Below are positions 1,390 through 56,256 of a DNA stretch of 64,000 bases, piece by piece. The stretch is from IMG/VR virus record IMGVR_UViG_3300025018_000091. One strand, given 5' to 3'. The notes below the pieces were generated by a model. That model did no database searches, was not told the DNA's origin, and saw nothing but the letters and a program-made list of their open reading frames with translations. Position numbers and translations under genes: made by a program. Every line of letters begins with the position of its first letter. The stretch's first letter is position 1. This DNA comes from a virus. Its lineage: Duplodnaviria > Caudoviricetes.

Positions 1390-1416
1390 TTATTTTCCCA
1401 TAATAATAGTTAGATA

Positions 1417-1761
1417 GGAGTAAATCTATAAGCGGAGTCCTGTCTATAAATCGAGACAATCATTAATCTTGGCGAACAATTACTCATTCGCTCCAGCGTC
1501 AACCCGGAAACTCAGACGAGTAGTCCTCAATCATTTCCTGTTCGACTTGCAGCACATAGGGTTTGCAAATGCCACTCATATCACTATGAGTGCGGTAGGC
1601 TCTTACCCTGCCTTTTCAACCTTACCATTTTACTGGCGGTATGTTTTCTGTTGCACTTTCCGTCACCTCACAATGCCTGGGTGTTACCCAGTATGTCACT
1701 CTTTGCTGCTCCGACTTTCCTCATATAACCGCCGGTTATATGCGATTGTCCAATCTACTCC
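1417..1761 (-). ncRNA. rnpB: RNase P RNA, bacterial type A
   Basis: Minus strand: GGAGUAGAUU/AAUUUACUCC-type P1, GACAAUCG/UGAUUGUC P2, GAGGAAAGUCGGAG with ACAGGACUCCGCUUAU (P4), CUGGGUAACACCCAG, ACGGAAAGUGCAACAGAAAACAUACCGCC, GGUAAGAGCC, GCAAACCC...GCAAG. Confidence 0.95.
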
Positions 1762-6191: not shown

Positions 6192-6493
6192 GGTTTTCCT
6201 CTACTCCTACGTAATCTATCTTTATTCTTTTTAATTGTTACCTTACCGCCAGGATCTTGTTTAGAAATAAACTTAACCATCTTAGCAAAGACTTCATTGG
6301 TCATTAAAACTTCTGGAGTATTGTATTTCTCTTCTAATTCCTTATTGGAAAAACAAGCATGGATTGCTTTGTGGCAATCTCTACAAATTGTCTCTGTAGT
6401 TTTGCCACCCCTAGAACGCGGGACCATATGATGATCTGAAGGATAATAATTAAGTCTTTCGCATATTGGACATATCAAAAAAGAATCATCCAT
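6188..6493 (-). CDS. small HNH nuclease
   Basis: CPICER..SDHHMVPRSRGG....ICRDCHKAIH. Confidence 0.85.
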   Translation of the reverse strand: MDDSFLICPICERLNYYPSDHHMVPRSRGGKTTETICRDCHKAIHACFSNKELEEKYNTPEVLMTNEVFAKMVKFISKQDPGGKVTIKKNKDRLRRSRGKP

Positions 6494-7771: not shown

Positions 7772-7847
7772 TGGTGGGCTATACAGGTAACGCTCCTGTG
7801 TTTACTCCATATCAGAGAGTCGTCGTAAACTTTTGGACCAATAGCCC
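7772..7847 (-). tRNA. tRNA-Ile(GAU)
   Basis: GGGCUAU/AUAGCCC-ACCA; ACUCU-CU-GAU-AU-GGAGU; atypical T loop. Confidence 0.82.
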
Positions 7848-7893
7848 ATTGTCAATGCTCGCTACAACCTTTAACGTATGGACCAAGCAATGC

Positions 7894-7969
7894 TGGTAGC
7901 AGAGACGGGAATTGCACACCGTGACCTCCTGGGTATGAACCAGACGAGCTGCTTCTGTTCTACTCTGCA
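7894..7969 (-). tRNA. tRNA-Met(CAU), initiator-like
   Basis: UCUGG-UU-CAU-AC-CCAGG; unpaired 1:72; CCA. Confidence 0.82.
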
Positions 7970-7980
7970 ATAACTTTCAA

Positions 7981-8565
7981 TTAATAAGGATACTTCTTCA
8001 TAACCTCATCATCTGTAGGTACGTCTTTATTAACCTTATATAGCGCTCTTGAGATTCTAGAAACGCTTATTCTTTCACCTTTAATACATCTACCAGTATC
8101 ATAAATAGATAAGCCTGATAGTATTCCATACTTCCTGCAACCGTTCATACTTCGATGCATTGCATGGATACCTGCTAACAAACACTTTTGTCTATCAGCA
8201 ATAAGCTCTGGTCCAGTCCAACCTTCTTTGGTTTTTCCTCGACCAATATTCATAGACATCATACACCAACTAGCTCCATTATCTCCTCGTTTTTTACCAG
8301 TAACAATCTCCTGTCTATAACCACCAGTTTCTTCTGATGATATTATTGCAACCAAAGCTGCTTCTTGCGCTCTTGCCCATTTACCACCAAACCATGGTGT
8401 ATGTGATGGATCATATACAATCAATTGTATATGACCCACTACTTCATTAACGTACTCAATGTGAGCAGCTTGAAGTGCTTCATCATTTGGATGCATTCTC
8501 TCTGGAGTAAAATTACCCAAGATAATAGATACCAACCAAATACGTAGTATTTGTACAGCAGTCAT
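7981..8565 (-). CDS. secreted lysozyme/transglycosylase-like protein
   Basis: N-terminal hydrophobic segment, helix ending in SSEETGG, GDNGASWCMMSMN resembling SLT GxMQ region. Confidence 0.4.
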   Translation of the reverse strand: MTAVQILRIWLVSIILGNFTPERMHPNDEALQAAHIEYVNEVVGHIQLIVYDPSHTPWFGGKWARAQEAALVAIISSEETGGYRQEIVTGKKRGDNGASWCMMSMNIGRGKTKEGWTGPELIADRQKCLLAGIHAMHRSMNGCRKYGILSGLSIYDTGRCIKGERISVSRISRALYKVNKDVPTDDEVMKKYPY

Positions 8566-8645
8566 TATACTCTCCTATTAAAATCAACTAATTAAATTTA
8601 TTTAATTAATCTACAGTATGAAGTATAAATGACTAAATATTGGCA

Positions 8646-8721
8646 TGGTGGTACATACTAGAGTTGAACTAGTATTTGCTGTTTATCAGACAACCGTCTT
8701 AGACCGTTGGACCAATGTACC
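8646..8721 (-). tRNA. tRNA-Ile(GAU)
   Basis: GGUACAU/AUGUACC-ACCA; loop CU-GAU-AA; UUCAA T loop. Confidence 0.9.
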
Positions 8722-8727
8722 ATAGAA

Positions 8728-8891
8728 GAAACAACTAAAATTTGAGTGATAGCATGCCTTTCGGCATCATCGCGTCTACCATTCCGCCACAATCTCAGAC
8801 CTCTCGGCACGTAGAGAAAGGAGGGATTCGAACCCTCATAACTGTTAAGTTAATGATTTTTCTAAATGTAATCACTACAGGCATTTGTTTC
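8728..8891 (-). ncRNA. Y-RNA-like ncRNA A with circularly permuted class II (Leu-type) tRNA domain
   Basis: GAAACAA-AUGCC-UGUAGUGAU-UACAU ... AUCACUCA-AAUUUUAG-UUGUUUC; inside, in order: variable arm, T arm GAGGG-UUCGAAU-CCCUC, acceptor-like stem, D arm GUGGCGGAAUGGUAGACGCG. Confidence 0.8.
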
Positions 8892-8892
8892 A

Positions 8893-8968
8893 TGGTGGTG
8901 CCCCTCGGGATCGAACCGAGATATCAGGATCTTCAGTCCCGCGCATGAGCCATCACTGCCAGAGCACC
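8893..8968 (-). tRNA. tRNA-Phe(GAA)
   Basis: CGGGA-CU-GAA-GA-UCCUG; CCA. Confidence 0.9.
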
Positions 8969-8990
8969 ATGAAGTCATTTATACGAAAGA

Positions 8991-9066
8991 TGGTGGTACC
9001 TACTGGATTTGAACCAGTGACGCCAAGTTCTTCAGACTTGCGCTCTGCCAACTGAGCTAAGGTACC
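8991..9066 (-). tRNA. tRNA-Phe(GAA)
   Basis: Canonical cloverleaf, CAAGU-CU-GAA-GA-ACUUG; CCA. Confidence 0.95.
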
Positions 9067-9162
9067 ATTGGTGGGGCATATTAGGAATCGGAGCCCCCGT
9101 CCCGAACATTGTTGTCATCCAACATCTCATATCGTAAGATATGATTTAATAATGTTGGCGTC

Positions 9163-9738
9163 CTAAATTTTAGTAAAATCTGCTGTGCTTCCAAAATCTA
9201 CATAAACATAATTACCATAAGTGTCTTGCATTATATTATCTGGATTCGCCTCAAAATCCCAAGGATCTAATCCAAGTTCACTCATCAATGTTTCTTTTAA
9301 GTTTTTAACTTTAACCGGATCTTTATTACCTTTAATTGGAAATACCCTGTCAGCAATATAATATGCTATCCATATTGGATTAGCAAATGAAGACACATCA
9401 CCAACTAATAACTTTTGACCTACCCTTACAGCTATTCCAGAATTATAAACATTGGTTATATGCTCTGACTTAATTGATTCCAATCCCTTAAGAAAAGAAA
9501 GAACCTTATCTTTTTTATTATCTGGTAACAAAAAGAACTTAATTATTTTATTATTACCATAATCATAAACTTCGCCTTCTGCACCCGCGCCAAGCATTTC
9601 CCCATGAGGAATTTGAACACCCAAAGATTTTTCAACTATATCTAATAAATCTGTATCATTAGATCTAAAACTATTATATAGTTCATCTAATTTCATTTCC
9701 CTTACAGGATTTTCATAAGATGTGCTCATCTCATCCAT
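9163..9738 (-). CDS. protein kinase-like protein
   Basis: LGAGAEGEVY Gly loop, IIK lysine, NPDNIM catalytic-like loop, VDFG; frame stays open upstream to ~9828. Confidence 0.65.
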   Translation of the reverse strand: MDEMSTSYENPVREMKLDELYNSFRSNDTDLLDIVEKSLGVQIPHGEMLGAGAEGEVYDYGNNKIIKFFLLPDNKKDKVLSFLKGLESIKSEHITNVYNSGIAVRVGQKLLVGDVSSFANPIWIAYYIADRVFPIKGNKDPVKVKNLKETLMSELGLDPWDFEANPDNIMQDTYGNYVYVDFGSTADFTKI

Positions 9739-9807
9739 CTCTTTTAATTTATCAAGATTAGAAATGAACCTATCTAAATCAAATAAGGTTGCATTTAATG
9801 TTCTATC

Positions 9808-9863
9808 TACAACCCCTTTAACTCCTTGAATTAATATTAATTCAAGGAGTTAAAGGGGTTGTA
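9808..9863. repeat. 56-bp perfect palindrome
   Basis: TACAACCCCTTTAACTCCTTGAATTAAT followed directly by its reverse complement. Confidence 0.95.
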
Positions 9864-10099
9864 TTGTATTATAGATGTTCCATCCTTGAGTTTCAAAAAA
9901 GAGTATATATATTCGCCGGAAGAATCATTTATAAAATCTGAATCTGTAAATACAAAATTATATCCTTTGTATTGAGAACCATTTCCTTCTTTGACTTGTT
10001 GGGCAAAATTATCTAAATCACTAGAGGCTAATGCTAAAAAAATACTCTGCTTGTTTTAATAAACTAACTGCGCGCATAATATAATGGCGTGTTATTAAT

Positions 10100-10210
10100 A
10101 ATTGACTGTACCAGTTTCACTCCTGGCATGGTGTACCTTTCCCAACTATTTCAGGGCGTTACTGTGACGAATTTCACCATAAAGGAATAGCCATCAGATG
10201 CCAGTCAATT
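10100..10210. ncRNA. unassigned structured RNA candidate
   Basis: Closed by AATTGACTG/CAGTCAATT, GC-richer than flanks, internal CTGGCAT/ATGCCAG pairing. Confidence 0.3.
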
Positions 10211-10253
10211 CCAGCGCTTCAATCGAGGTCGGTTCCTCGTACCATAACAGTCA

Positions 10254-10329
10254 TGGGTATACTATTGGACTTGCACCAATTCTTCACCTCGGGAAAGAGG
10301 GAGTGCTTACTACTTACACTAATATATAC
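10254..10329 (-). pseudogene. degenerate tRNA-like gene (6-nt anticodon loop)
   Basis: D arm, T arm UUGG-UGCAAGU-CCAA, CCA; CCUC-UUUCCC-GAGG. Confidence 0.5.
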
Positions 10330-10330
10330 T

Positions 10331-10400
10331 TGATATGTACCTCGGATTTGCACCGAAACTGACGGCTCAGCCGTTATGCAGCTCTTACATCAATACATAT
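10331..10400 (-). pseudogene. degenerate tRNA-like gene (5-nt anticodon loop)
   Basis: AUAUGUA/UACAUAU acceptor, UCGG-UGCAAAU-CCGA T arm. Confidence 0.45.
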
Positions 10401-10510
10401 GCCTTATCTACTTACTGAGTCGGACTCAAATAATATATAAGTTTATGATGTCTGTACACAACAAATATAAACTTGGGGTTCCCTATTCGAATATTCTACG
10501 GAAGTAGATT

Positions 10511-10587
10511 TGGTTGGACAGGTGGGAGTTGAACCCACTTCTAGATGTTTATAAGACATCCCTCCATGACCGATTGAGTTCTGTCCA
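10511..10587 (-). tRNA. tRNA-Ile(UAU)
   Basis: GAUGU-CU-UAU-AA-ACAUC; canonical T arm; CCA. Confidence 0.88.
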
Positions 10588-10599
10588 ATGATCATTTTA

Positions 10600-10676
10600 T
10601 GGTCGTATAGGTGGGAATCGAACCCGACTTCTAACTGCTTGTAAAACAATCCTCCATACCAATTGAGTTCTATACG
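10600..10676 (-). tRNA. tRNA-Val(UAC)
   Basis: AUUGU-UU-UAC-AA-GCAGU; D arm nearly identical to neighbouring Ile(UAU). Confidence 0.85.
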
Positions 10677-10680
10677 ATAA

Positions 10681-10755
10681 TGGCACCCCTGAGCGGAATC
10701 GAACCGCCCTCAATAGCGTGACAAGCTACCCGCCTCACCAGATGCGTACAAGGGT
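10681..10755 (-). tRNA. tRNA-Asp(GUC)
   Basis: GUAGC-UU-GUC-AC-GCUAU; G73; CCA. Confidence 0.88.
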
Positions 10756-11041
10756 ATTCTAAGCATGAATAAAACCATGCCAGAGGTTATACATTATATG
10801 TGCCATCTATCATAGATTTCAAAGTAGTTAATACTTCAATCTTACTAGGATAGCTGACAACAAATGTATTATGCTCATAACTAGCAATTCCAACATATTT
10901 TTGTGTTCGATTGTTATGACTCAACGTTATATCATAATCACACTTATTATACCAATCTAGTATTTCTAGCTTATTCATACATTCTCCATGTTAGATAAAT
11001 CTTTAGTATAAGATAATATGCATTGTTAATTACAAACAATT

Positions 11042-11117
11042 TGGTGGGACCAGAGGGATTTGAACCCTCATCAAACAGATTAAGAGTCTGCTATGTTTCC
11101 ATTGACACCATAGTCCC
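11042..11117 (-). tRNA. tRNA-Lys(CUU)
   Basis: GCAGA-CU-CUU-AA-UCUGU; CCA. Confidence 0.92.
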
Positions 11118-11120
11118 ATA

Positions 11121-11212
11121 CAATTACTACAAGTTCGTTGGCAACAGCGCTTCTTCGCTTCTCTACCTGTCTTATTGAGTTCATCAATTGTGCAACTTAC
11201 ACCAAGTAATTG
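11121..11212 (-). ncRNA. tRNA-derived ncRNA candidate, family 2 copy 1
   Basis: CAAUUACU/AGUAAUUG closing stem, D-arm-like UGGUGUAAG..GCAC, similar to 11530-11618. Confidence 0.4.
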
Positions 11213-11271
11213 CAAACACACGATACATCAGAGGCTGGTTAAACTATCACTTGAGTATCTTAGCGTGTCAG

Positions 11272-11342
11272 CGGAACTAGGGGGAATCGAACCCCCGCTT
11301 ATAGATCGACAATCTACAGTCCTACCATTAAACGATAGCTCC
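11272..11342 (-). tRNA. tRNA-Asp(GUC)
   Basis: GUAGA-UU-GUC-GA-UCUAU; CCA not encoded. Confidence 0.9.
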
Positions 11343-11344
11343 TA

Positions 11345-11450
11345 ATATCAGACAAAATATGTAAACATAAGGGAACCATCCCGTCAAGTTGGAATCGAAC
11401 CAAACTAGTTGTTGATTTGGTACAATGTAATGCTTACTGCATTCTGATAT
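11345..11450 (-). ncRNA. Y-RNA-like ncRNA D (T arm only)
   Basis: AUAUCAGA-AUGCA-GUAAGCAU-UACAU ... AUGUUUAC-AUAUUUUG-UCUGAUAU; internal UUGG-UUCGAUU-CCAA. Confidence 0.8.
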
Positions 11451-11525
11451 GGTGGGACCAGAGGGGGTCGAACCCTCACCGAACAGATTAAGAGTCTGGC
11501 ATGCTCCCATTAACACCACGGTCCC
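11450..11525 (-). tRNA. tRNA-Lys(CUU)
   Basis: CCAGA-CU-CUU-AA-UCUGU; paralog of 11042-11117. Confidence 0.92.
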
Positions 11526-11529
11526 ATTC

Positions 11530-11618
11530 GATTACGCTGGAGTCGGCAATAGCAGATCTTTACTATATCTCTCTCCAGTCCTAGAGTCAAGGTCTAGGCG
11601 CTCTTACGCTACATAACC
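11530..11618 (-). ncRNA. tRNA-derived ncRNA candidate, family 2 copy 2
   Basis: GGUUAUG/CGUAAUC closing stem, UAGCGUAAGAGCGC, CUAGA-CCUUGAC-UCUAG hairpin. Confidence 0.4.
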
Positions 11619-11650
11619 AAGGCTGTTTTATTCGAAGTCAACAACCTTTT

Positions 11651-11690
11651 TAGTAGGAAAGGGTGGATTTGAACCACCTTTTACTTTCCC
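11651..11690 (-). ncRNA. tRNA minihelix (acceptor stem plus T arm only)
   Basis: GGGAAAG-UAAAA-GGUGG-UUCAAAU-CCACC-CUUUCCU-A-CUA. Confidence 0.65.
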
Positions 11691-11693
11691 ATA

Positions 11694-11920
11694 ATAAACG
11701 ACAAAAATTTGCTAAGACACCGGCACATTGATGGTCTTTTCAGATTACATCCGTTCGCCCCGCACTTTTGAGTCAGTGACTCTCTAGAAGACAGCATTAC
11801 CTGTTACCTTCGACTTATGAATATTACTATTCAAATTAGCGCCATCGCGTAATTCCTCACGGAATCAGTAGCTACCTTAGGGTCATTATTGATATGTAGT
11901 CCTAACTTGCATTCGTTTAT
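11694..11920 (-). ncRNA. Y-RNA-like ncRNA E (long insert)
   Basis: AUAAACGA-AUGCAA-GUUAGGAC-UACAU ... GUCUUAGC-AAAUUUUUG-UCGUUUAU. Confidence 0.78.
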
Positions 11921-11997
11921 GGCTCCCGCACTAGGGTTTTCACCTAGAACCTCGCACCCTAATCTGGGTGGTACTCTGTATTTTGAGCTATACGGAA
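11920..11997 (-). pseudogene. tRNA-like gene with 6-nt anticodon loop
   Basis: Acceptor, D and T arms and CCA present; CACCC-AGAUUA-GGGUG. Confidence 0.6.
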
Positions 11998-12157
11998 TGG
12001 TCAACGGAAAAGGATTCGAACCTTTGACTACCCAGCACACTCAGAGTAACTATCATCGTCCTCAACATAATATATCGATCTATCATATTTGGTGTCGAAT
12101 AATCTTTAAACTAAATGCTTCTACTACTTGGTGCTCTGACCTCTGAGCTATCCGTCG
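11998..12157 (-). ncRNA. tRNA body with ~90-nt insert replacing the anticodon loop
   Basis: CGACGGA-UAGCUCAGAGGUCAGAGCA ... AAAGG-UUCGAAU-CCUUU-UCCGUUG-ACCA. Confidence 0.7.
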
Positions 12158-12162
12158 ATAAA

Positions 12163-12292
12163 GTAACAACAAGGATTTGAAGAGACTAGTTGTACTAGCG
12201 CCAGCTTCCCCATATAGTGGGGAATAAAGGAATCGGACCTTAATCGTTTATTGTATCAAAATAAAATGTAATCCCTTACATGCATTTGTTAC
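12163..12292 (-). ncRNA. Y-RNA-like ncRNA B with permuted tRNA-like domain
   Basis: GUAACAA-AUGCA-UGUAAGGGAU-UACAU ... AUCCUUG-UUGUUAC; T arm AAGG-UCCGAUU-CCUU then acceptor hairpin UUCCCCA-CUAUA-UGGGGAA. Confidence 0.75.
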
Positions 12293-12293
12293 G

Positions 12294-12376
12294 TGGTTTC
12301 CCCGCTAGGATTTGCACCTAGATTTTCTACTTAGTACGTACTTAAATAGATGTCCTAATTATTAGACGACAGAAAA
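12294..12376 (-). pseudogene. tRNA-like gene with 15-nt anticodon loop
   Basis: D arm UCGUCUAAUAAUUAGGAC, T arm CUAGG-UGCAAAU-CCUAG, CCA; loop UUAAGUACGUACUAA. Confidence 0.6.
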
Positions 12377-12380
12377 ATAC

Positions 12381-12452
12381 AATGCTTCTTCCTGGCTTCT
12401 ATTCCAGAATCTTCGCCCTAAGCGAGATAATAATTTATACTAAAAAAGCATT
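12381..12452 (-). pseudogene. highly degenerate tRNA-like gene
   Basis: AAUGCUU/AAGCAUU closing stem with cloverleaf-like spacing. Confidence 0.3.
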
Positions 12453-12529
12453 TGGTGCTTCCGTTCGCCTTTCGATAGCGAAATCTCCCAGGTTCATTCC
12501 GGGCGTTTTACCATTTAAACTACAGAAAC
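12453..12529 (-). pseudogene. tRNA-like gene with atypical anticodon and T loops
   Basis: GUUUCUG/CGGAAGC-ACCA; loop AAUGAAC lacks U33; 9-nt T loop. Confidence 0.55.
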
Positions 12530-12531
12530 AT

Positions 12532-12677
12532 AAGTGACAAGAAATATAAAGATTTTATTCGGCGCCCTGCACTTTTTCCTTTCGGACCACTTGTGCTATG
12601 ATTAGCTTTCACTAACCAGCAGGATTCGATACCTGCACCATCGGACATTTTTGATGTAATCCTTATTGCATTCACTT
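12532..12677 (-). ncRNA. Y-RNA-like ncRNA F with permuted tRNA-like domain
   Basis: AAGUGA-AUGCA-AUAAGGAU-UACAU ... AUCUUUAU-AUUUCUUG-UCACUU; GCAGG-UAUCGAAU-CCUGC then UGGUUAG-UGAAAG-CUAAUCA. Confidence 0.8.
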
Positions 12678-12763
12678 GGCTCTCAGGGCTGGATTCGAAC
12701 CAACGGTGCATTTCTACGGCGGATTAACAATCCGCTGCCTTGACCTGACTAGGCTACCTGAGA
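12677..12763 (-). tRNA. tRNA-Asn(GUU) with long variable arm
   Basis: GCGGA-UU-GUU-AA-UCCGC; Tyr-like D arm, 14-nt variable region; G73; CCA. Confidence 0.8.
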
Positions 12764-13083
12764 ATATTATACTCAATAAAAGACTCATTAAATATTGACA
12801 CATTTAGTGGAACTAACAACACTCCTTCATGAATCTCGGCATGACAATTATTACAAACTAAGATGCACTTTCGTAATTCAATTACGATTTTATTCCAACT
12901 TTTAGGACTTCCTCTAACTGCTCCCAAACCAAATTCTTTTTTAGAAGGATCTAAATGATGTAAAGATAATGCAGAAGAACATTTATTATATCCACAGAAG
13001 CAACATTTACCTCCCATTGCAAGTATAATTCTCTCTTTTGTGCGTTTTCTCCAACGCTTAACTTTCTCAGATTGCTTACTCAT
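12754..13083 (-). CDS. HNH endonuclease
   Basis: GGKCCFCGY..SLHHLDP...CILVCNNCHAEIH. Confidence 0.88.
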   Translation of the reverse strand: MSKQSEKVKRWRKRTKERIILAMGGKCCFCGYNKCSSALSLHHLDPSKKEFGLGAVRGSPKSWNKIVIELRKCILVCNNCHAEIHEGVLLVPLNVSIFNESFIEYNILR

Positions 13084-13097
13084 ACTTAGATATATAG

Positions 13098-13168
13098 CGA
13101 CCCCCCTCGGACTTGAACCGAGATTCGAAACTTAACAGGCTCCCGTTCTACCTTTGAACTAAAGGGTC
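13098..13168 (-). tRNA. tRNA-Asn(GUU)
   Basis: GGAGC-CU-GUU-AA-GUUUC; CCA not encoded. Confidence 0.85.
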
Positions 13169-13173
13169 AATTA

Positions 13174-13456
13174 TTGATGACAAAATTTGTAAAGATAATG
13201 GCTTTATCTTAAGTAACACTGACGTGCCTCAAGAGCCATAGTGTAAGTATCCCCTCAACACCATATGGAATGTAATTTATCCATTAACATCTTTTGGAAT
13301 ATACAATTAATACTCACTGCATATTTATGAGACATATAGTTTTCTAACGGGTTTACCATTCATTATGTTTCGGAATGGCGGGCATTTCTTATAAATAAGC
13401 ATTACCCATTTATTATCGGTTGTTGTATTTATGTAATCCTTACATGCATTCATCAA
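13174..13456 (-). ncRNA. Y-RNA-like ncRNA C (long AU-rich insert)
   Basis: UUGAUGA-AUGCA-UGUAAGGAU-UACAU ... AUCUUUACA-AAUUUUG-UCAUCAA. Confidence 0.78.
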
Positions 13457-13532
13457 TGGTGGGACCGGAGGGAATTGAACCCTCAACTTTCTGGTTAAAA
13501 GCCAGCTACTCTGCCAATTGAGTTACGGACCC
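13457..13532 (-). tRNA. tRNA-Lys(UUU)
   Basis: CUGG-CU-UUU-AA-CCAG; CCA. Confidence 0.92.
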
Positions 13533-13560
13533 GATTTGCGGATATCATCCGCAAGGGAAA

Positions 13561-13683
13561 CTATTTTTTAGTTGTTTGTTTGGTACTCTTAGAACTCTTG
13601 CTAGAGTTTTTATTGAGTTTTCGCCAACATGGTCGGCAATATTTACCGCCAAGTGAACGAGCAATCTCACATGCTTTACACAT
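13561..13683 (-). CDS. 40-aa basic CxxC..CxxC peptide (not in ORF track)
   Basis: GAGAGGAGGTG RBS then MCKACEIARSLGGKYCRPCWRKLNKNSSKSSKSTKQTTKK*. Confidence 0.55.
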   Translation of the reverse strand: MCKACEIARSLGGKYCRPCWRKLNKNSSKSSKSTKQTTKK

Positions 13684-13761
13684 AGTTCACCTCCTCTCAT
13701 TGAGTGGAGGTCACTAACTGTCAACTAAATAAACCATGAATTCTCCTTGAATAGAATTATT

Positions 13762-13906
13762 GTAGCAACGAAAATTTGTGAGACTATTTTTAACGTGTGC
13801 TGCCGCTACACTAACCCAAGATATAAAGTAAATTGGTCTTGGGTGCGGGAATCGGACCCGCCCTTCGTGCGCCCAATGCAATGTAATCCCAACATGCATT
13901 TGCTAC
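13762..13906 (-). ncRNA. Y-RNA-like ncRNA I with complete permuted T-acceptor-D domain
   Basis: GUAGCAA-AUGCA-UGUUGGGAU-UACAU ... GUCUCACA-AAUUUUCG-UUGCUAC; GCGGG-UCCGAUU-CCCGC, ACCCAAGA/UCUUGGGU hairpin, D arm UAGUGUAGCGGCAGCACAC. Confidence 0.85.
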
Positions 13907-13907
13907 T

Positions 13908-13982
13908 TGGTGGTCTCACTAGGACTTTCACCTAGACCGCCTCCTGAAATGGAGGTATTCATAAAACTTAAACTACAAGACC
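13908..13982 (-). pseudogene. tRNA-like gene with 6-nt anticodon loop
   Basis: GGUCUUG/UGAGACC-ACCA; CCUCC-AUUUCA-GGAGG. Confidence 0.6.
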
Positions 13983-13983
13983 A

Positions 13984-14080
13984 TGACGCTATAAACTTAT
14001 TTATTTGGTAGCGTCAGCGGGACTCGGACCCACAACCTCGTTCTTATAAATGAAATGTAATCCCTACAAGCATTTGCTAT
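13984..14080 (-). ncRNA. Y-RNA-like ncRNA J (5' module, T arm and acceptor hairpin; 3' strand not found)
   Basis: AUAGCAA-AUGCU-UGUAGGGAU-UACAU, GUGGG-UCCGAGU-CCCGC, UGACGCU-ACCA...AGCGUCA. Confidence 0.6.
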
Positions 14081-14081
14081 A

Positions 14082-14154
14082 TGGTCGCGAGACTGTGGGA
14101 TGAGCACAGATTTCCACCCTAAAAGTGGCGAGCTATCATTTACTCCATCTCGCA
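14082..14154 (-). pseudogene. tRNA-like gene, nominal anticodon UUA
   Basis: CCAC-UUUUAGG-GUGG; T loop CUCAUCC is non-canonical; CCA. Confidence 0.55.
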
Positions 14155-14155
14155 A

Positions 14156-14227
14156 TGGATGCGGAGGCAAGAATTGAACTTGCAGAATCTAGCTTATGAG
14201 ACTAGGTTGGGACCGTCTCTCCCCGCT
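14156..14227 (-). tRNA. tRNA-Met(CAU), reduced D arm
   Basis: CUAGU-CU-CAU-AA-GCUAG; A1:A72 mismatch; CCA. Confidence 0.75.
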
Positions 14228-14252
14228 ATAAAATAATGTATGATATACATCA

Positions 14253-14326
14253 TGGTGGAGCGTAGGGGTTACCCTCCCCTTCTTCTGCGGTGCAAGCGCA
14301 GCGTATTCGTATCCTACTCACGCCCC
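14253..14326 (-). tRNA. tRNA-Ala(UGC)
   Basis: G3:U70, CUGCG-CU-UGC-AC-CGCAG; atypical T loop. Confidence 0.82.
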
Positions 14327-14385
14327 ATATTATCTATGCATATAGTGGAATAAAATTAACTTGCACAAAATAGGAAAACTCCACT

Positions 14386-14880
14386 ATGGCTAAAACGAAA
14401 ACTAACTGTTTAAATTGTAACAAAGAAATTTATGTTGAAAACAAAGAAATTAAAAGAGGTTTTGGAAAATTTTGTAATTCCAAATGTTCTAGTGAACATA
14501 GAATTCGTAATAAACCAAAATTGCTAGATAATGTAAATTGTGCCCTATGCAATAAATCTTTTCATATGACCGAAAGTAAAAAAAAGTTATCAAAATCTGG
14601 ATTATATTTTTGTTGTCGAACACATAAAGATGAAGCACAACGCATTGGTGGTATAAAAGAAATTATGCCGCTACATTATGGCACCGCCAAACCAGACAAT
14701 TCTCGTTCTTATAGAAGAATAGCTTTCAATGAAAAAGCTAAAATGTGTGAAAGATGTGGATATGATCAACACGAAGCTGCGATAATTGTTCACCACAAAG
14801 ATAGCAACAGAGACAATAATAATCTAGATAATCTTGAAATATTGTGTGCTAATTGTCACGCTATAGAACATTGGAGCTGA
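14386..14880 (+). CDS. HNH homing endonuclease
   Basis: CERCGY..IVHHKDSNRDNNNLDNLEILCANCHAIEH. Confidence 0.9.
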   Translation: MAKTKTNCLNCNKEIYVENKEIKRGFGKFCNSKCSSEHRIRNKPKLLDNVNCALCNKSFHMTESKKKLSKSGLYFCCRTHKDEAQRIGGIKEIMPLHYGTAKPDNSRSYRRIAFNEKAKMCERCGYDQHEAAIIVHHKDSNRDNNNLDNLEILCANCHAIEHWS

Positions 14881-14903
14881 TGCCCGTGGAACTACATCTC
14901 ATT

Positions 14904-14977
14904 TGGTGACGCATAGGAGAGTCGAACTCCTCTTCGTAGATTGAAAGCCTAATGTCCTACCGATAGACGAACGCGCC
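14904..14977 (-). tRNA. tRNA-Glu(UUC)
   Basis: loop CU-UUC-AA; canonical D and T arms; CCA. Confidence 0.88.
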
Positions 14978-15064
14978 ATAACTATGATAAAATCACCGGA
15001 GTTGCGCCGGATATTGTCCTCACGAACAATATTGAATACCATCGACCCTAATTCTATCAATTTG

Positions 15065-15137
15065 TCAGAGAGAGAGGATTTGAACCTCCACCACATGGAT
15101 CCAAACCATGGACGCTACCAGATTACGCTACTCCCTG
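15065..15137 (-). tRNA. tRNA-Pro(UGG)
   Basis: CAUGG-UU-UGG-AU-CCAUG; CCA not encoded. Confidence 0.88.
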
Positions 15138-15247
15138 ATTGAGTCGCCCTAAGAGATATGTTCTAAACTAACTCCTTGGGCGGATTAGGTTTAGCCAATC
15201 AATCTCTATTATTCCCAAACCTATGCGGGCTGAACATAGGTCTTTCG

Positions 15248-15323
15248 TGGTCGGAATGAGAAGACTCGAACTTCCGATACCTTGTACCCAAAACAAGTGC
15301 CATAGCCACTAGGCGACATTCCG
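15248..15323 (-). tRNA. tRNA-Pro(UGG)
   Basis: CUUGU-UU-UGG-GU-ACAAG; CCA. Confidence 0.92.
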
Positions 15324-15424
15324 ATATACTTCTGCTCTCCAACTTTCTGTTACGCTTCAAAAGTAAAAGGTAACTTCTATTAATAAGTATCGTACGTTAG
15401 ACTTGGAATTAAGTACGTATACTT

Positions 15425-15508
15425 TGGTGGGGACGGTAGGATTCGAACCTACATTGCTCAAGACGGCATCTTTATCGGATGCTGAGAGACCCATCTCTCT
15501 TCGCCCCC
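15425..15508 (-). tRNA. Tyr-type tRNA body with atypical loop (nominal AUA, G33)
   Basis: GCAUC-CGAUAAA-GAUGC, long variable arm, canonical T arm, CCA. Confidence 0.6.
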
Positions 15509-15550
15509 ATTGGATATTAAATTATCAGCGATCAAGACGTCCCATGACGT

Positions 15551-15639
15551 TGGTGCCGCCTGGTGGAATCGAACCACATAGCCACTCGGGGCGCCTGATT
15601 TACAGTCAGGAGATCCTCCCAGGAATCTAGTCAGTCGGC
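15551..15639 (-). tRNA. tRNA-Tyr(GUA)
   Basis: CCUGA-CU-GUA-AA-UCAGG, long variable arm, CCA. Confidence 0.9.
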
Positions 15640-15803
15640 ATTATATTTTGAATTGAATGTATTTATCTCCTAAAGTTATAGAATTTTTAGTTATTAAAGG
15701 TACTGAAACTACATAATTATTACTAATAAAGTAATAAATTGCTGCCGCCAACCCTACATCTCCCTGTTTTTTAGTATTTACTTGATTAAACATGAGACAA
15801 TAT

Positions 15804-15871
15804 TAACTGACAAAATATAGTGTAGATGTTTTTGGTCAAATATCAATGTAATCCACACAAGCATTCAGTTA
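15804..15871 (-). ncRNA. Y-RNA-like ncRNA G (minimal, module only)
   Basis: UAACUGA-AUGCUU-GUGUGGAU-UACAU ... AUCUACAC-UAUAUUUUG-UCAGUUA; 68 nt. Confidence 0.75.
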
Positions 15872-15961
15872 TAGTAAAATTAAACGAATTTAATCGAATA
15901 ACTTTATATCGAACCCTACCAATATTACAGCATACAAATATTGATGATACTTAGGAGTAAT

Positions 15962-16613
15962 ATGAGGCAAGGTAAAATAGCATCTATCACAAACGAAGAA
16001 TTAACAACCCTTATACAAAACAATATATCATTGAAAAACGTTTTGTTATTTTTAAATCTACATCCGAGTAGTGGAAAATAGAAGATTAAAACAAAAATTA
16101 GAACAAGAGAATATCAATTACGATCATATCAAAAATGGTTCGGGATACGATCCCTCCAAAATACATACATTTAGAAAGCATGTATCATTGAATGATGTTC
16201 TTACTCTAAACTCTTCTTATAGTCCAAGATTACTTAAGAAGCGTCTTATAAAAGAAGGTTTATTATTCAACTATTGTAATGTATGTAATATACAGCCACT
16301 TTGGAATAATCTACCACTTCAATTACAGTTAGATCATATCAATGGTAACAATAGAGATAATAGGTTGGAAAATCTAAGATTATTATGCCCTAATTGTCAT
16401 TCCCAGACAGACACATTCGCTGCCAAAAATAAAATCAAAAAGAACAAACCTACAAAAATAGTACAACCACGAAAAACAAAGATAACTTGGCCAGATGACA
16501 ATGAGTTGCTAGATTTAGTAACAAACTCAAATTTTGTTCAAGTTGCCGCAACACTTGGTGTAAGTGATAATGCTATTAGAAAAAGATTAAAAAGAGCGGG
16601 GCTAATCAAATAA
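15962..16613 (+). CDS. HNH homing endonuclease (frameshift near 16075)
   Basis: LQLDHINGNNRDNRLENLRLLCPNCHSQT; upstream frame MRQGKIAS... from 15962 joins through GGAAAATAG indel. Confidence 0.85.
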
Positions 16614-16619
16614 TTAGCT

Positions 16620-16691
16620 TGGCAGGTGTGGTAGGTAACGATCCCACTAGTAGAAGTTTTGGAGGCTTCCCTCTCACCTTGAGTCACACCC
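16620..16691 (-). tRNA. tRNA-Trp(CCA)
   Basis: GAAGC-CU-CCA-AA-ACUUC; G73; CCA. Confidence 0.85.
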
Positions 16692-16877
16692 AAATAATTA
16701 CTATAATTGTAACTTATAATAATCATTCGATAAATTTCGGATTCATTATAAAATAAATCTAAGTGATTTTGGACGTCACTTACATCCCTATTTACCTAGA
16801 GGAAAATAACGATTCCCCTAATCTCTATGCATCGATGCATACTTTGTTAATTAATGTTACACTTAATTAACAAAGCT

Positions 16878-16990
16878 TGGTGCGGAAGGTTGGAATTAAA
16901 CCAACAACCTTCGGGTTAATCATTTAAACTCTAGTGTCGACGTTATCCATCAACTCAAGTCCCGGCGCTCCTTCTTCAAGCCGCTTCCAC
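16878..16990 (-). ncRNA. fMet-like tRNA body with ~45-nt insert in the anticodon loop
   Basis: GUGGAAG/CUUCCGC-ACCA; CCGGG ... UAACCCGAAGGUUGUUGG as in initiator tRNA. Confidence 0.65.
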
Positions 16991-16993
16991 ATA

Positions 16994-17059
16994 AAGGTAA
17001 CAAAAAGTGTAAAGATTGTTTTTTTAATGGTTAGATGTAATCCTTACGGCATTTACCTT
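16994..17059 (-). ncRNA. Y-RNA-like ncRNA H (minimal, module only)
   Basis: AAGGUAA-AUGCC-GUAAGGAU-UACAU ... AUCUUUAC-ACUUUUUG-UUACCUU; 66 nt. Confidence 0.78.
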
Positions 17060-17134
17060 GGTAGGAAAGGTTGGACTTCAACCAACGTCCTGACAACCTT
17101 TACGTTGCCTGCTCTTTCTCTGAGCTACTTCCCT
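17059..17134 (-). pseudogene. tRNA-like gene with 6-nt anticodon loop
   Basis: AGGGAAG/CUUUCCU-ACCA; GCAAC-GUAAAG-GUUGU. Confidence 0.6.
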
Positions 17135-37009: not shown

Positions 37010-37291
37010 ATTATAATCTTTATGAATTTGCTTGAATGTTCTGTTCCACTTCCCAATCTTTTAGCTTTCGATTGAAAACAATTTCCCAAGCAGAAATGGC
37101 TGTGTATATATCTGGTTTATTATCACCAAAATAACAATACTTAGCGCCATATATTGCGTTATGTTCTTCTCCATTAATTTCAACAACAGTACTAATACCC
37201 CCGTCTGCTTCAATAGACAAGACATTAACTTCATGTCCCATTACATGGAACGTAATAAAATCTGAAAAATCTTCCATATAATCTCCAATTA

Positions 37292-37409
37292 TTGTGGGGC
37301 AGGTGAGATTCGAACTCACAATCATTACTAGTGTACTCAGTAATGATAGGCGTTTAAAAGTCGTACACTACTCTTAAATCGCCCGCGTATTCCATTCCGC
37401 CACCGCCCC
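37292..37409 (-). ncRNA. tRNA-Leu(UAA)-derived RNA with extended anticodon and variable arms
   Basis: GGGGCGG-UGGCGGAAUGGAAUACGCG Leu D arm, canonical T arm; UAA buried in a 9-bp stem. Confidence 0.7.
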
Positions 37410-37450
37410 ATACATTAAAGATGCTAATTAATTAGCATCTTTAATTCTAA

Positions 37451-38059
37451 TTAACTATTTTGAATTTTTGTTTTCAAATCATCAAAACAAATTCCATAAT
37501 CAATTACCCATCGAGCGTAAACTTCAGAATCCTTATTTAATCTCATAGCAACTTCTATTGTTTCATTATTTACAGTAGCTTTTTTTGTACCATGAGCGCT
37601 GCTTACTCTAATAAGAGATTGTTCTAATTCATATTGACTTTTAGTCAGATAAAATAATTGGCTATGTATGTTTGTCAAATCCGTAACATCTACTCCAATA
37701 AAAATATAATCTACATTTTGCCAAGGTCTAATCTGTACCAGATTAAGTTGATTATTTGATGATGTAAATATACTTGATTTAAATTCAAAATTTTTACCGT
37801 TAAAAGATTTGTCTCCCTGATCTATATCTTTCGAATTAGGTATACCTAATTTATCTGAATAAAAATTTGCAATTCTGGAACCGTATGATTGAGGATTTAG
37901 CAAAGCAATACACTTCAAAAAATCTTCTTCTTTTTTATCAAAAGACCATTTTGGATATCCTACGGCTTTACCTCTTATCTCATGTAATGAGCTTAAAAGT
38001 TTTGTAGCCATCTCCATATCAATATTATCCCTATCACTTTTTTTCACTCTAACTACCAA
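37451..38059 (-). CDS. putative type II restriction endonuclease
   Basis: GD...FEFK PD-(D/E)xK-like motif, QIRPWQ; overlaps stop of an N6 MTase gene. Confidence 0.55.
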   Translation of the reverse strand: MVVRVKKSDRDNIDMEMATKLLSSLHEIRGKAVGYPKWSFDKKEEDFLKCIALLNPQSYGSRIANFYSDKLGIPNSKDIDQGDKSFNGKNFEFKSSIFTSSNNQLNLVQIRPWQNVDYIFIGVDVTDLTNIHSQLFYLTKSQYELEQSLIRVSSAHGTKKATVNNETIEVAMRLNKDSEVYARWVIDYGICFDDLKTKIQNS

Positions 38060-38999
38060 ATCTTTCTGTATAGAGTTTCACTAAATCTGATTTACACAAA
38101 GATGATTGTCTTGCACTATTATCTGCACATGAATAATCTAATGATTCAAATCTTTTAATTAACTTTTCTTTATCAAGATTCGATTTGATAAAATGTACAG
38201 ATTTTGGTCTCCATTTAAATAAATCTACAGATACCTGACCAGGATTCGATCCGTAAGCTAATATCACAAAATCTGCATCTTGTGGTGGGAAAAGATCACC
38301 ACCCTTTTTAAGGTAAGGAAGAAACTCCCAATCTTCATGAGATAAAATCTTTTTAACCTTTTCCCTTAATTTATTTCTTTTCTCCCATATTTGAAAACAA
38401 CACTTAACATTTGTAGATTTAACACCCTCAAAAGGTTCTTCCAATAAATCTACTGACTTAATTAGATGAAATCTTTTATCTAACCTATCATGAATAGATT
38501 GTTTATTCCAAGTTCTAGGAATAATGAAAGCAATTACTTCTGAAAACTTAGCTGCGTGATTAAAAAAATCTACCGATAATTTATTCTGAGTACCAAAAGG
38601 AGGATTGCCAACGACAATAACTTTTTTGTATTGCTTACTGGGCTCGAAATCAAAAAAAGATTTGTTTATATATTTAGGATTTGCTCTACACAAATCTTTA
38701 TCTATTTCTATAGCCAATCTATTATCTGCTGGCAAATTATTGAAAAACGAACCCGTCCCAGCGCTTGGCTCAATTATTAAATCATAATCTTCAAACCTAT
38801 AAGACTGTGACAATAATTTCAAACACTCTTTAGCTACAAACTCTTTTGTATTAAACTGATCATAGATATACACATCATCAGTTTTTGTAATTTTAATTCT
38901 GGAATATATGGTTTTATTATCTGTAAAACTAACTACCTCTTCTAAAGCACATGTAGCAAAATCATTTCTAACTCTATTTAAAATAAATCTAATTATCAT
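38049..38999 (-). CDS. N6-adenine DNA methyltransferase
   Basis: DQFNT, IIEPSAGTGSF, VVGNPPFG, AFIIP. Confidence 0.85.
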   Translation of the reverse strand: MIIRFILNRVRNDFATCALEEVVSFTDNKTIYSRIKITKTDDVYIYDQFNTKEFVAKECLKLLSQSYRFEDYDLIIEPSAGTGSFFNNLPADNRLAIEIDKDLCRANPKYINKSFFDFEPSKQYKKVIVVGNPPFGTQNKLSVDFFNHAAKFSEVIAFIIPRTWNKQSIHDRLDKRFHLIKSVDLLEEPFEGVKSTNVKCCFQIWEKRNKLREKVKKILSHEDWEFLPYLKKGGDLFPPQDADFVILAYGSNPGQVSVDLFKWRPKSVHFIKSNLDKEKLIKRFESLDYSCADNSARQSSLCKSDLVKLYTERFGS

Positions 39000-50721: not shown

Positions 50722-50798
50722 TGGCATCCCCAGTAGGATTCAAACCTACGACCCTCGGATTAGAAGTCCGGTGCTCTATTCAACTGAGCTATGGGGAC
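50722..50798 (-). tRNA. tRNA-Arg(UCU)
   Basis: CCGGA-CU-UCU-AA-UCCGA; CCA. Confidence 0.93.
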
Positions 50799-55751: not shown

Positions 55752-56173
55752 CGAAACAAACCTCTCCTTAAAGCCGTTCCGCAGTTATTGTTTTTAATAT
55801 TTCTGTTTGCTGCCAGTTTAATTTTTGGTAATTGCCAACAGCTTACCATCAATCGTTTTAACCACTTTACAAATAGCGCCATCAAATTTACGATAGCCTA
55901 GTGGTTTTTCACTACCAGTCAATTCAACTGTTTGAAAATCCCAACCATCTATATGTGAATTCTGCCAATTATCCGAACCATCATATACAAACGCATAAAC
56001 AGCGCCAGTCATATTCTCTCCAATTAGTAATTATCTTCCAAGTAAGCAAGTTGTTTATTCTTACCATTTAAACGCTTGGTACGTTTATCACGCATAGGTC
56101 CACCTTTTCTTTTCCTGGCGGGAAAATTAAATGGATTTCTATACTTGTTAATCTTTTGTTTCATAAAAATTTG

Positions 56174-56256
56174 TAGTCCCACTCGGACTTGAACCGAGAC
56201 GCCCATACGGGCACTTGCTCTTGAGGCAAGCGTGGCTGCCATTACACCATGAGACC
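56174..56256 (-). tRNA. tRNA-Leu(CAA)
   Basis: CUUGC-CU-CAA-GA-GCAAG, long variable arm. Confidence 0.9.

Follow-up and report, generated by a model that had tools for sequence, protein, structure and literature searches.

A leucine-tRNA-like RNA with covarying anticodon- and variable-arm loops, predicted in an uncultured phage

The 64,000-nt stretch of DNA analysed here (IMG/VR virus record IMGVR_UViG_3300025018_000091; Duplodnaviria, Caudoviricetes; "the window" below means this whole stretch) carries on its minus strand, at positions 37295-37409, a 115-nt tRNA-like gene with G1 at 37409 and the discriminator base A73 at 37295. The RNA keeps the acceptor stem, D arm and T arm of a leucine tRNA (the shell), and both its anticodon arm and its variable arm form long hairpins, the loops of which are complementary to each other. 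We assign a probability of roughly 0.55 to the reading that this is a real, selection-maintained and non-decoding RNA built on a leucine-tRNA shell, which belongs as a divergent member to a large phage family and acts according to the working model proposed below. That the RNA is a real structured molecule with loop-loop pairing is very probable when taken by itself. The proposed function, in which the shell would carry a separate module, is more tentative and, judged from the sequences, has somewhat less than an even chance of being right.

Fold of the RNA

The Rfam tRNA model (RF00005) aligns end to end with 37295-37409 at 36.5 bits (gathering score 29), with 37 nt of the anticodon region scored as an insertion; ARAGORN, applied to the window, did not call this RNA. 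The upper half of a decoding class II tRNA-Leu is completely represented, with a 7-bp acceptor stem, A73, U8, A14, the A15:U48 pair, a 3-bp D stem, G18G19 and a T arm with a loop of the UUCGAAU type, and the D arm can be aligned with the phage's own tRNA-Leu genes. A long variable arm is likewise a feature of class II tRNAs. However, the usual 5-bp anticodon stem with its 7-nt loop has given way in the window RNA to an anticodon helix of 13 bp that ends in an 8-nt loop, neither U33 nor a leucine anticodon being conserved, and the length of the variable arm (27 nt) and of the whole RNA also sets it apart. U8-G9 connect the acceptor stem with the D arm, one linker base lies between the D arm and the anticodon helix, and a single U separates the anticodon helix from the variable-arm helix (for all parts of the RNA, see Table 1).

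A preliminary description, made from the sequence alone, had reported a D arm of Leu type together with a canonical T arm, and an anticodon arm extended by a 9-bp stem above GGCG-A/CGCC. All of these were recovered on the minus strand, the anticodon arm as 4 bp, a bulged A and 9 bp. The long variable stem-loop that it had described exists as well, and is refined to a 10-bp stem with a 7-nt loop once a closing G-U pair is counted. It had also claimed a complementarity of 7 nt between the two loops; this is correct for the window, but only 6 bp of the kissing helix are common to the window and its two homologues (see below), the seventh (A-U) pair being present in the window only.

The RNA differs from its surroundings in G+C content (48% vs ~32% in the surrounding region). 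RNAfold predicts both long hairpins, with a minimum free energy of -47.6 kcal/mol (z = -5.3), and 0 of 200 shuffled sequences fold equally well. A repeat search returned a 9-bp variable-arm stem (37321-37329 with 37339-37347) and a perfect complementarity of 8 nt between the two loop regions (37329-37336 with 37363-37370). The complementarity between the anticodon-arm loop and the variable-arm loop thus amounts to 6-8 nt; the energy of the loop-loop duplex is -7.5 kcal/mol, a value reached by none of 200 dinucleotide shuffles of the insert (p = 0.005).

Homologues and covariation

The gene for a 5'-3' exonuclease in the neighbourhood of the RNA led to two related viral contigs. One of these, L082 (268 kb), carries a distant but syntenic copy of the RNA at 6333-6452, ~3.7 kb upstream of the exonuclease gene. 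This copy was found by BLAST via the 5' 28 nt of the RNA and is reported neither by ARAGORN nor by Rfam at E <= 0.01. A close copy was found in a pattern scan of metagenome contigs on L210 (4.2 kb), where it is followed downstream by the same 85-aa and kinase-like open reading frames (ORFs) as in the window. Exact 39-nt and 25-nt pieces of the RNA retrieved no homologue from the viral contigs (the one match was an ordinary tRNA), and GenBank phages yielded no relatives of the locus DNA or the RNA, nor of the downstream ORF or the exonuclease.

The three sequences were aligned with a covariance model (R1) that was built from the window and L210 copies and contains the nested helices only; it scores the window at 137.6, L210 at 136.1 and L082 at 63.3 bits. 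Pairs were then counted on the nested structure together with the loop-loop helix, written as a pseudoknot, which gives 44 pairs in three sequences. Standard pairs fill 98.5% of the cells, and 20 of the 44 pairs have changed on both sides. None of 500 shuffles reached the observed pairing values, and pairing drops to 40-50% if the 3' partners are slid by 1-3 columns. The double-sided changes affect 7 of 13 pairs in the anticodon-arm helix (100% paired in the three sequences), 6 of 10 pairs in the variable-arm helix (93% paired) and 4 of 5 pairs in the T stem. In the kissing helix, three of six pairs are compensatory, three are invariant and none is broken: the strands read GUGUAC/GUACAC in the window and L210, and GUAUGU/ACAUAC in L082 (or GGUAUGU/ACAUACC, if counted as 7 bp). 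As the kissing helix is absent from the covariance model used for the alignment, this support is not circular. The preliminary description had regarded the pairings as selected and the RNA as a non-decoding tRNA mimic, and had suggested searching homologues for loop-loop complementarity. Such complementarity is kept in both homologues, and the covariation of both long stems, the T stem and the kissing helix supports its proposal.

The lengths of the arms are conserved in the window, L210 and L082 (13 bp with a bulge, and ~10 layers), but their sequences are not. A comparison of the window with L082, whose flanking proteins are 32-60% identical, reveals an uneven distribution of identity over the RNA. 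The acceptor stem's 5' strand is identical (7/7; GGGGCGG, as also in L210), the T loop is identical (7/7), and positions 8-25 (U8-G9 and the D arm) agree in 15 of 18 cases, vs 2/10 in the T stem, 6/18 in the distal anticodon helix and 7/21 in the variable stem. Furthermore, all three copies have U at position -1 (37410 in the window). In these alignments, conservation of the acceptor stem and the D arm extends to the sequence and that of the other helices to the structure only, which suggests that something reads the upper half by its sequence.

Inability to decode

Judged from its predicted fold, the window RNA is unable to decode, having no 7-nt anticodon loop. Even in the non-canonical decoding tRNAs covered by a review (PMC7609411), anticodon stems are no longer than 6 bp. 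The preliminary description had noted a UAA anticodon buried in the stem. This triplet is indeed present in the window, where the segment GGCGA-UUUAAGA resembles an anticodon stem-loop of tRNA-Leu(UAA), but it is incidental, since the equivalent of UUUAAGA is UUAAAGG in L210 and GAAUGGA in L082.

The same resemblance could be taken for the trace of a tRNA-Leu(UAA) gene with one or two short introns or insertions, from which a normal decoding tRNA would be spliced, the more so as the 5' half of the anticodon helix aligns with the tRNA-Leu(UAA) of the phage. We rejected this explanation as extremely improbable. Apart from the UAA motif not being conserved in L210 and L082, there is no conserved mature anticodon loop and no bulge-helix-bulge (the helix is continuous save for one bulged base), the extra sequence of ~18 nt is far below the size of a self-splicing intron, its excision would leave an A-A mismatch at 31-39, and Rfam found no intron family. 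The lack of an ARAGORN call and of a copy in one related genome (G002) would fit a decaying tRNA pseudogene, in which the hairpins and the match between the loops arose by chance. This is very improbable and is already contradicted by the 20 compensatory pairs, the 98.5% pairing, the z-score of the fold (-5.3) and a loop duplex unmatched in 200 shuffles, as well as by the conservation of the upper half across phages with flanking proteins of only 32-60% identity.

Leucine-tRNA shells with other inserts

Many other RNAs in uncultured phages share the frame of the window RNA. A pattern that combines a D arm of Leu type with a UUCGAAU T loop, set apart by 55-85 nt (~37 in a normal tRNA-Leu), was matched in at least 119 viral contigs. 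The counts that follow refer to the matches listed. These include 103 frames with clean acceptor and T stems, whose inserts fall into 70 unrelated clusters; the acceptor AGUCAGG/CCUGACU is identical in 62 of the 103 clean frames. Several contigs possess 2-5 copies with different inserts, which are located among ordinary tRNA genes. In L089-L207 (e.g., L111, L090, L135, L193), arrays of shells with the identical AGUCAGG frame and unrelated inserts of 37-122 nt were observed, the copies being spaced by 100-300 nt, and the spacers sometimes hold further tRNA-shaped elements. One of these contigs, L135, also encodes a GOLLD RNA (1293-1710) besides its members of the shell family.

Certain positions that the search pattern does not impose are conserved in almost all clusters. 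U48, the last position of the insert, is found in 68 of 70 clusters (background T frequency, 0.26), A73 in 63 of 70 and C74 in 67 of 70. A76 is found in 51 of 70 clusters, and position 75 is mostly A or U, so that the trailer reads C-N-A and not CCA; the half-kept CCA may be a contact of RNase P or a signal for 3' processing. The trailer of the RNA studied here is CAA in the window and L210 and CCA in L082. Of the 23 tRNAs called by ARAGORN in the window, 18 encode CCA. Among the tRNAs of this phage, tRNA-Leu(CAA) (56173-56256, minus strand) has no encoded CCA and ends with A-CAAA, similar to the usual trailer of the shell family.

Several clusters show pairing between the first hairpin's loop and a stretch just 5' of the T stem, and for cluster 3 one compensatory change in this pairing, GAUAAGUA/UACUUAUC vs GAUAAGUU/AACUUAUC, was noted on visual inspection of the alignment. 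Among the matches listed, the window, L210 and L082 alone have a true kissing helix that joins two hairpins with long, regular stems. GGUGG and AGGUGGA are enriched in the inserts (12 clusters vs 2.9 expected, in the 70 cluster representatives), as is CCACC; these weak enrichments are probably due to the two strands of recurrent knot helices and less probably to a shared recognition motif, and the idea of a sequence motif common to the inserts was dropped. The 119 loci with shells that were listed were also searched for a shared protein partner, but no ORF family occurs in over 9 of them, so the conservation of the RNA frame goes far beyond that of its genomic surroundings.

Outside the viral contigs, the AGUCAGG frame was found in 8 contigs among 185,579 species genomes, all of them short contigs of metagenome-assembled genomes. 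Seven of these eight loci clearly have an insert, and the second copy in L221 runs off the end of its contig. The idea that the AGUCAGG frame stems from a host tRNA-Leu was rejected, since no normal tRNA-Leu was seen in those 8 contigs. No shell of the AGUCAGG type was found in GenBank phages.

The window RNA matches the search pattern and possesses A73, C74, U48 and a structured insert that is not an anticodon arm. With the uncatalogued shell family it shares the Leu-type D arm, the T loop, the 7-bp acceptor stem and the occurrence in the DNA of uncultured phages, the replacement of anticodon and variable arms by a structured insert, and the pairing of a distal loop with a segment at the position of the variable arm. 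It differs from the family in its acceptor, which is GGGGCGG in the window, L210 and L082 instead of the near-invariant AGUCAGG/CCUGACU, in its position as a lone copy between protein genes and not in a tRNA array, and in its loop-loop kissing helix, whereas the other sampled members have knots between a hairpin loop and a single strand. The window RNA is therefore a member of a larger family and not a one-off; its GGGGCGG acceptor makes it a divergent lineage of the shell family, if homologous at all.

Genomic setting

The window is phage-like, with short ORFs on the same strand, 23 tRNA genes, an RNase P RNA of type A, and a gene resembling Ro60 (phrog_850, "RNA-binding protein"). The tRNA-like gene is located between a 202-aa and an 85-aa ORF (Table 1); the closest tRNA gene (50722-50798) is ~13 kb away, and the main tRNA array (7772-17134) ~20 kb. 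In that array, a second tRNA-shaped RNA of ~110 nt was observed (16881-16990, minus strand), with a 7-bp acceptor stem (GUGGAAG/CUUCCGC), a UUUAAUU T loop and an encoded CCA; its interior is not that of a tRNA, it has no Leu-type D arm, and model R1 scores it at 19.7 bits.

Table 1. Positions of the tRNA-like RNA, its parts and other features of the window
Feature	Positions	Strand	Remarks
Whole tRNA-like RNA	37295..37409	-	Rfam tRNA 36.5 bits; model R1 137.6 bits
Acceptor stem, 5' strand GGGGCGG	37403..37409	-	Pairs with 37296-37302 (CUGCCCC); 7/7 pairs in 3 homologues
Leu-type class II D arm	37385..37400	-	3-bp stem GCG/CGC; loop GAAUGGAAUA; A14, A15, G18G19, A20a
Remodelled anticodon arm	37349..37383	-	4 bp, bulged A (37379), 9 bp, 8-nt loop AGUGUACG (37362-37369)
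Kissing-helix strand GUGUAC, anticodon-arm loop	37363..37368	-	Partner GUACAC, 37331-37336
Extended variable arm	37321..37347	-	10-bp stem, 7-nt loop AGUACAC (37331-37337)
Kissing-helix strand GUACAC, variable-arm loop	37331..37336	-	Partner GUGUAC, 37363-37368
U48, single unpaired base before the T stem	37320	-	Levitt-pair partner of A15; in all three homologues
T arm GUGAG, UUCGAAU, CUCAC	37303..37319	-	Loop invariant; stem covaries
3' trailer CAA	37292..37294	-	CCA unencoded here
Perfect palindrome, 16+16 nt	37414..37445		Repeat search; 4 nt upstream of the RNA 5' end
Upstream 202-aa ORF	37451..38059	-	Stop 41 nt before the RNA
Downstream 85-aa ORF	37020..37277	-	GGAG at 37283-37286, 8 nt after A73
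Type A RNase P RNA	1413..1761	-	Rfam RF00010, 278 bits, full length

Neither the L210 nor the L082 copy is preceded by the palindrome seen at 37414-37445, and a terminator scan did not call it. It may serve as a protective 3' hairpin for the upstream message after cleavage by RNase P, or as an RNase III site. In L082, the RNA starts 1 nt after the stop codon of the upstream gene, and an ATG follows directly after the encoded CCA. No ribosome-binding site precedes this putative start codon (L082, 6450-6460), so that the downstream message could be leaderless if the RNA is excised. A relative of the 85-aa ORF (32% identity) is located in L082 ~680 nt downstream of the RNA.

Other neighbouring genes were of little help in finding further copies. 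The search of the viral contigs with the two immediate neighbour ORFs returned no relatives, and the relatives of a methyltransferase-like neighbour (80 loci) are too distant and not syntenic; 30 of these loci were scanned for tRNAs, and no tRNA-like copy was found. This methyltransferase-like gene (38049-38999) has many relatives of 40-46% identity in contigs labelled as giant-virus metagenome-assembled genomes (GVMAG); either the gene is common to phages and giant viruses, or some of these bins contain phage DNA. A giant-virus origin of the window, to which the GVMAG names had pointed, was rejected in view of its RNase P RNA of bacterial type A and its mostly CCA-encoding tRNAs.

Comparison with known tRNA-like RNAs

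Several non-decoding tRNA mimics are known (e.g., transfer-messenger RNA (tmRNA), Y RNAs, the tRNA-like ends of viral RNAs, the stable RNAs of phage T4). The nearest classical analogue of the window RNA is the pair of T4 species 1 and 2 RNAs (rnaC and rnaD), for which relatedness is not demonstrable. These are likewise small, stable RNAs of unassigned function encoded beside phage tRNA genes, and at the end of rnaC a long hairpin precedes a canonical T arm, with an acceptor-like 3' strand. Model R1 matches rnaC only partially, with 21 bits over the 3' 92 nt, and this match is driven by the T arm and the hairpin preceding it; beyond the T arm, no homology to the window RNA is detectable. In contrast to the window RNA, the T4 RNAs lack a D arm of Leu type, rnaC does not resemble a tRNA in its 5' part, and no loop-loop complementarity was seen in them.

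The tmRNA has alanine identity, with the G3-U70 pair. It differs from the window RNA in its reduced D arm, its reading frame for the tag and its length of 260-400 nt. As presented in an excerpt of PMC3929946, its tRNA-like domain corresponds to the upper half of a tRNA without an anticodon arm, can be charged and binds the elongation factor EF-Tu, and pseudoknotted RNA takes the place of the lower half. ARAGORN found no tmRNA in the window, and the permuted tmRNA model reaches 9.1 bits at this locus vs a gathering score of 47, i.e., a chance score. Y RNAs of the YrlA type have, according to an excerpt of PMC4201824, a tRNA-mimicking module with T and D arms, and are found in phages with a Ro60-like gene, where they are located among tRNA genes. 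No Y RNA (RF02553) was matched by Rfam at the locus of the window RNA at E <= 10. Furthermore, the ends of the window RNA form an acceptor stem and its anticodon side is closed, whereas YrlA, with its permuted tRNA-like module, has its ends on the opposite side, where they make up the stem that binds Ro60. A link of the window RNA to the Ro60-like gene and Y RNAs was dropped, as there was neither an Rfam match nor a resemblance by eye.

We found no described tRNA or tRNA-like RNA whose anticodon arm is joined to the variable arm by a covarying kissing helix, nor did we find in the literature a description of the shell family or of a kissing loop between these two arms.

Possible functions

In the working model, the RNA would be transcribed within the same-strand operon, together with its neighbours, since there is no promoter-like site on the minus strand between the 202-aa ORF and the RNA. 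RNase P, possibly with the RNase P RNA of the phage itself, would cut at G1, followed by trimming of the 3' end and addition of CCA. The 13-bp and 10-bp helices would be closed by the 6-7-bp kissing helix to an intramolecular ring of three helices. According to our own rough triangle estimate (sides of 13, 10 and 6 bp), the arms would be ~30 degrees apart, and the bend required in the ring could come from the conserved bulge close to the base of the long helix. The shell would provide for processing, stability and recognition by tRNA-binding proteins, with leucyl-tRNA synthetase (LeuRS) as one candidate, and the locked ring would be the functional module of this lineage, most likely a shape for protein binding. 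Such a division into shell and insert accounts for the occurrence of many inserts on one shell, several of them in one phage.

Leucine identity in E. coli depends on A73, A15:U48, G18G19, A20a and pairs that join the D loop and the T loop (review PMC9976931), and variants of tRNA-Leu without the anticodon and variable arms can still be charged by LeuRS (PMC9976931). The whole set (A73, U8:A14, A15:U48, G18G19, A20a, G18:U55, G19:C56, U54:A58) is present in the window, L210 and L082, from which we infer that the upper half would be recognisable by LeuRS. More generally, though with clear reservations, we propose that phages may use the Leu-tRNA shell as a natural scaffold to express, stabilise and perhaps aminoacylate many different modules, the module of the window RNA being a closed ring of three helices. 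The Leu shell would have been chosen because LeuRS, RNase P and the CCA-adding enzyme ignore the lower half.

A number of observations weigh against the working model or against the evidence on which it is built. A copy is missing from one related phage genome (G002; 394 kb, 92% complete), so that some relatives can do without the RNA. No more than three sequences with kissing loops were found, two of which are close, so that the covariation reflects approximately one deep divergence. In the wider family, loop pairings were found at p <= 0.05 in 11 of 70 clusters vs 3.5 expected among the matches listed, which is a modest excess. Trimming and CCA addition are needed for the window and L210 RNAs, which do not encode CCA, and A73 and C74 may be conserved for recognition by RNase P and not by LeuRS. 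Finally, no single-stranded sequence that could obviously act as an effector is exposed by the ring, and the sequence fits pairing of the loops within one molecule and between molecules alike.

Other functions are conceivable for the same structure. The RNA might be a chargeable but ribosome-inert leucine acceptor, which would be leucylated by LeuRS after CCA addition and then serve as a donor for a tRNA-dependent transferase or as a ligand titrating LeuRS or EF-Tu, the locked lower body serving only to keep the RNA away from the decoding site. Every bacterial leucine identity element is present, the acceptor 5' strand and the D arm are conserved in sequence whereas the T stem merely covaries, and LeuRS is among the few synthetases that tolerate the loss of both arms (PMC9976931), which would also explain the use of a Leu shell throughout the family. 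This role is nevertheless unlikely in our opinion, as it leaves unexplained why dozens of different conserved inserts exist, several per phage; in addition, the window and L210 RNAs lack an encoded CCA, and no tRNA-dependent transferase was seen among nine scanned neighbours. We consider a decoy for a host defence system or toxin that recognises the upper half, the elbow or the 3' end of tRNA to be rather improbable. Enzymes that bind the elbow, or that modify or cleave the acceptor end, would be examples of such attackers, and the RNA would absorb their action without entering translation. Such a decoy would be consistent with the strictly conserved upper half with its intact elbow and A73, with a compact, base-paired lower half that offers no anticodon loop to nucleases, and with the heavy investment of this phage in tRNA biology (23 tRNA genes, RNase P RNA, Ro60-like gene). 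It does not explain the diversity and conservation of inserts in the family, the window has a single copy, and we know of no defence system that targets the upper halves of tRNA-Leu specifically. The preliminary description had listed a decoy for LeuRS or for an anticodon nuclease, or a regulator, as possible roles; the anticodon-nuclease decoy is the least likely of these, because a decoy of this kind should present an anticodon loop, and the window RNA hides it.

The arrangement of the locus permits yet another explanation, in which the RNA acts mainly as tRNA punctuation: RNase P and RNase Z would cut at this processing signal, thereby parting the cistrons on either side and defining their ends, and the RNA would have no role of its own after excision. 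It is tightly packed between same-strand ORFs in the window, L210 and L082, a GGAG ribosome-binding site following 8 nt after its end in L210 as in the window, and in the window a 16-bp hairpin is located just upstream of the predicted cleavage site. However, an acceptor and T minihelix suffices as a cleavage signal, and there would be no need for length-conserved helices of 10-13 bp, a covarying loop-loop helix and Leu-specific tertiary bases, so we regard punctuation alone as quite improbable. There is somewhat more to be said for pairing of the loops between molecules, leading to head-to-tail dimers or larger assemblies of the kind that kissing loops drive in other RNAs, although this too appears doubtful. 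Both partners are present on each molecule, making reciprocal dimers possible, the intramolecular contact requires arms only ~30 degrees apart by the rough estimate given above, and a large RNA, GOLLD, is encoded alongside family members on L135. On the other hand, the conserved lengths of the arms and the conserved bulge close to the foot of the anticodon helix agree with a ring in one molecule, and in other members of the family the same loop pairs with a single-stranded stretch at the variable position, which is most simply an intramolecular pseudoknot.

Significance

The window RNA is a compact and testable case of a phage that keeps the part of a tRNA read by enzymes and disables the part that decodes, and it connects the window phage with a very large family of RNAs that have a Leu-tRNA frame and occur in uncultured phages. 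Should the shells be charged or bind host enzymes acting on tRNA, they would add a new level at which phages interfere with the translation apparatus or make use of it. Should they be carriers, they would be a natural counterpart of the "tRNA scaffold" engineered for the expression of recombinant RNA.

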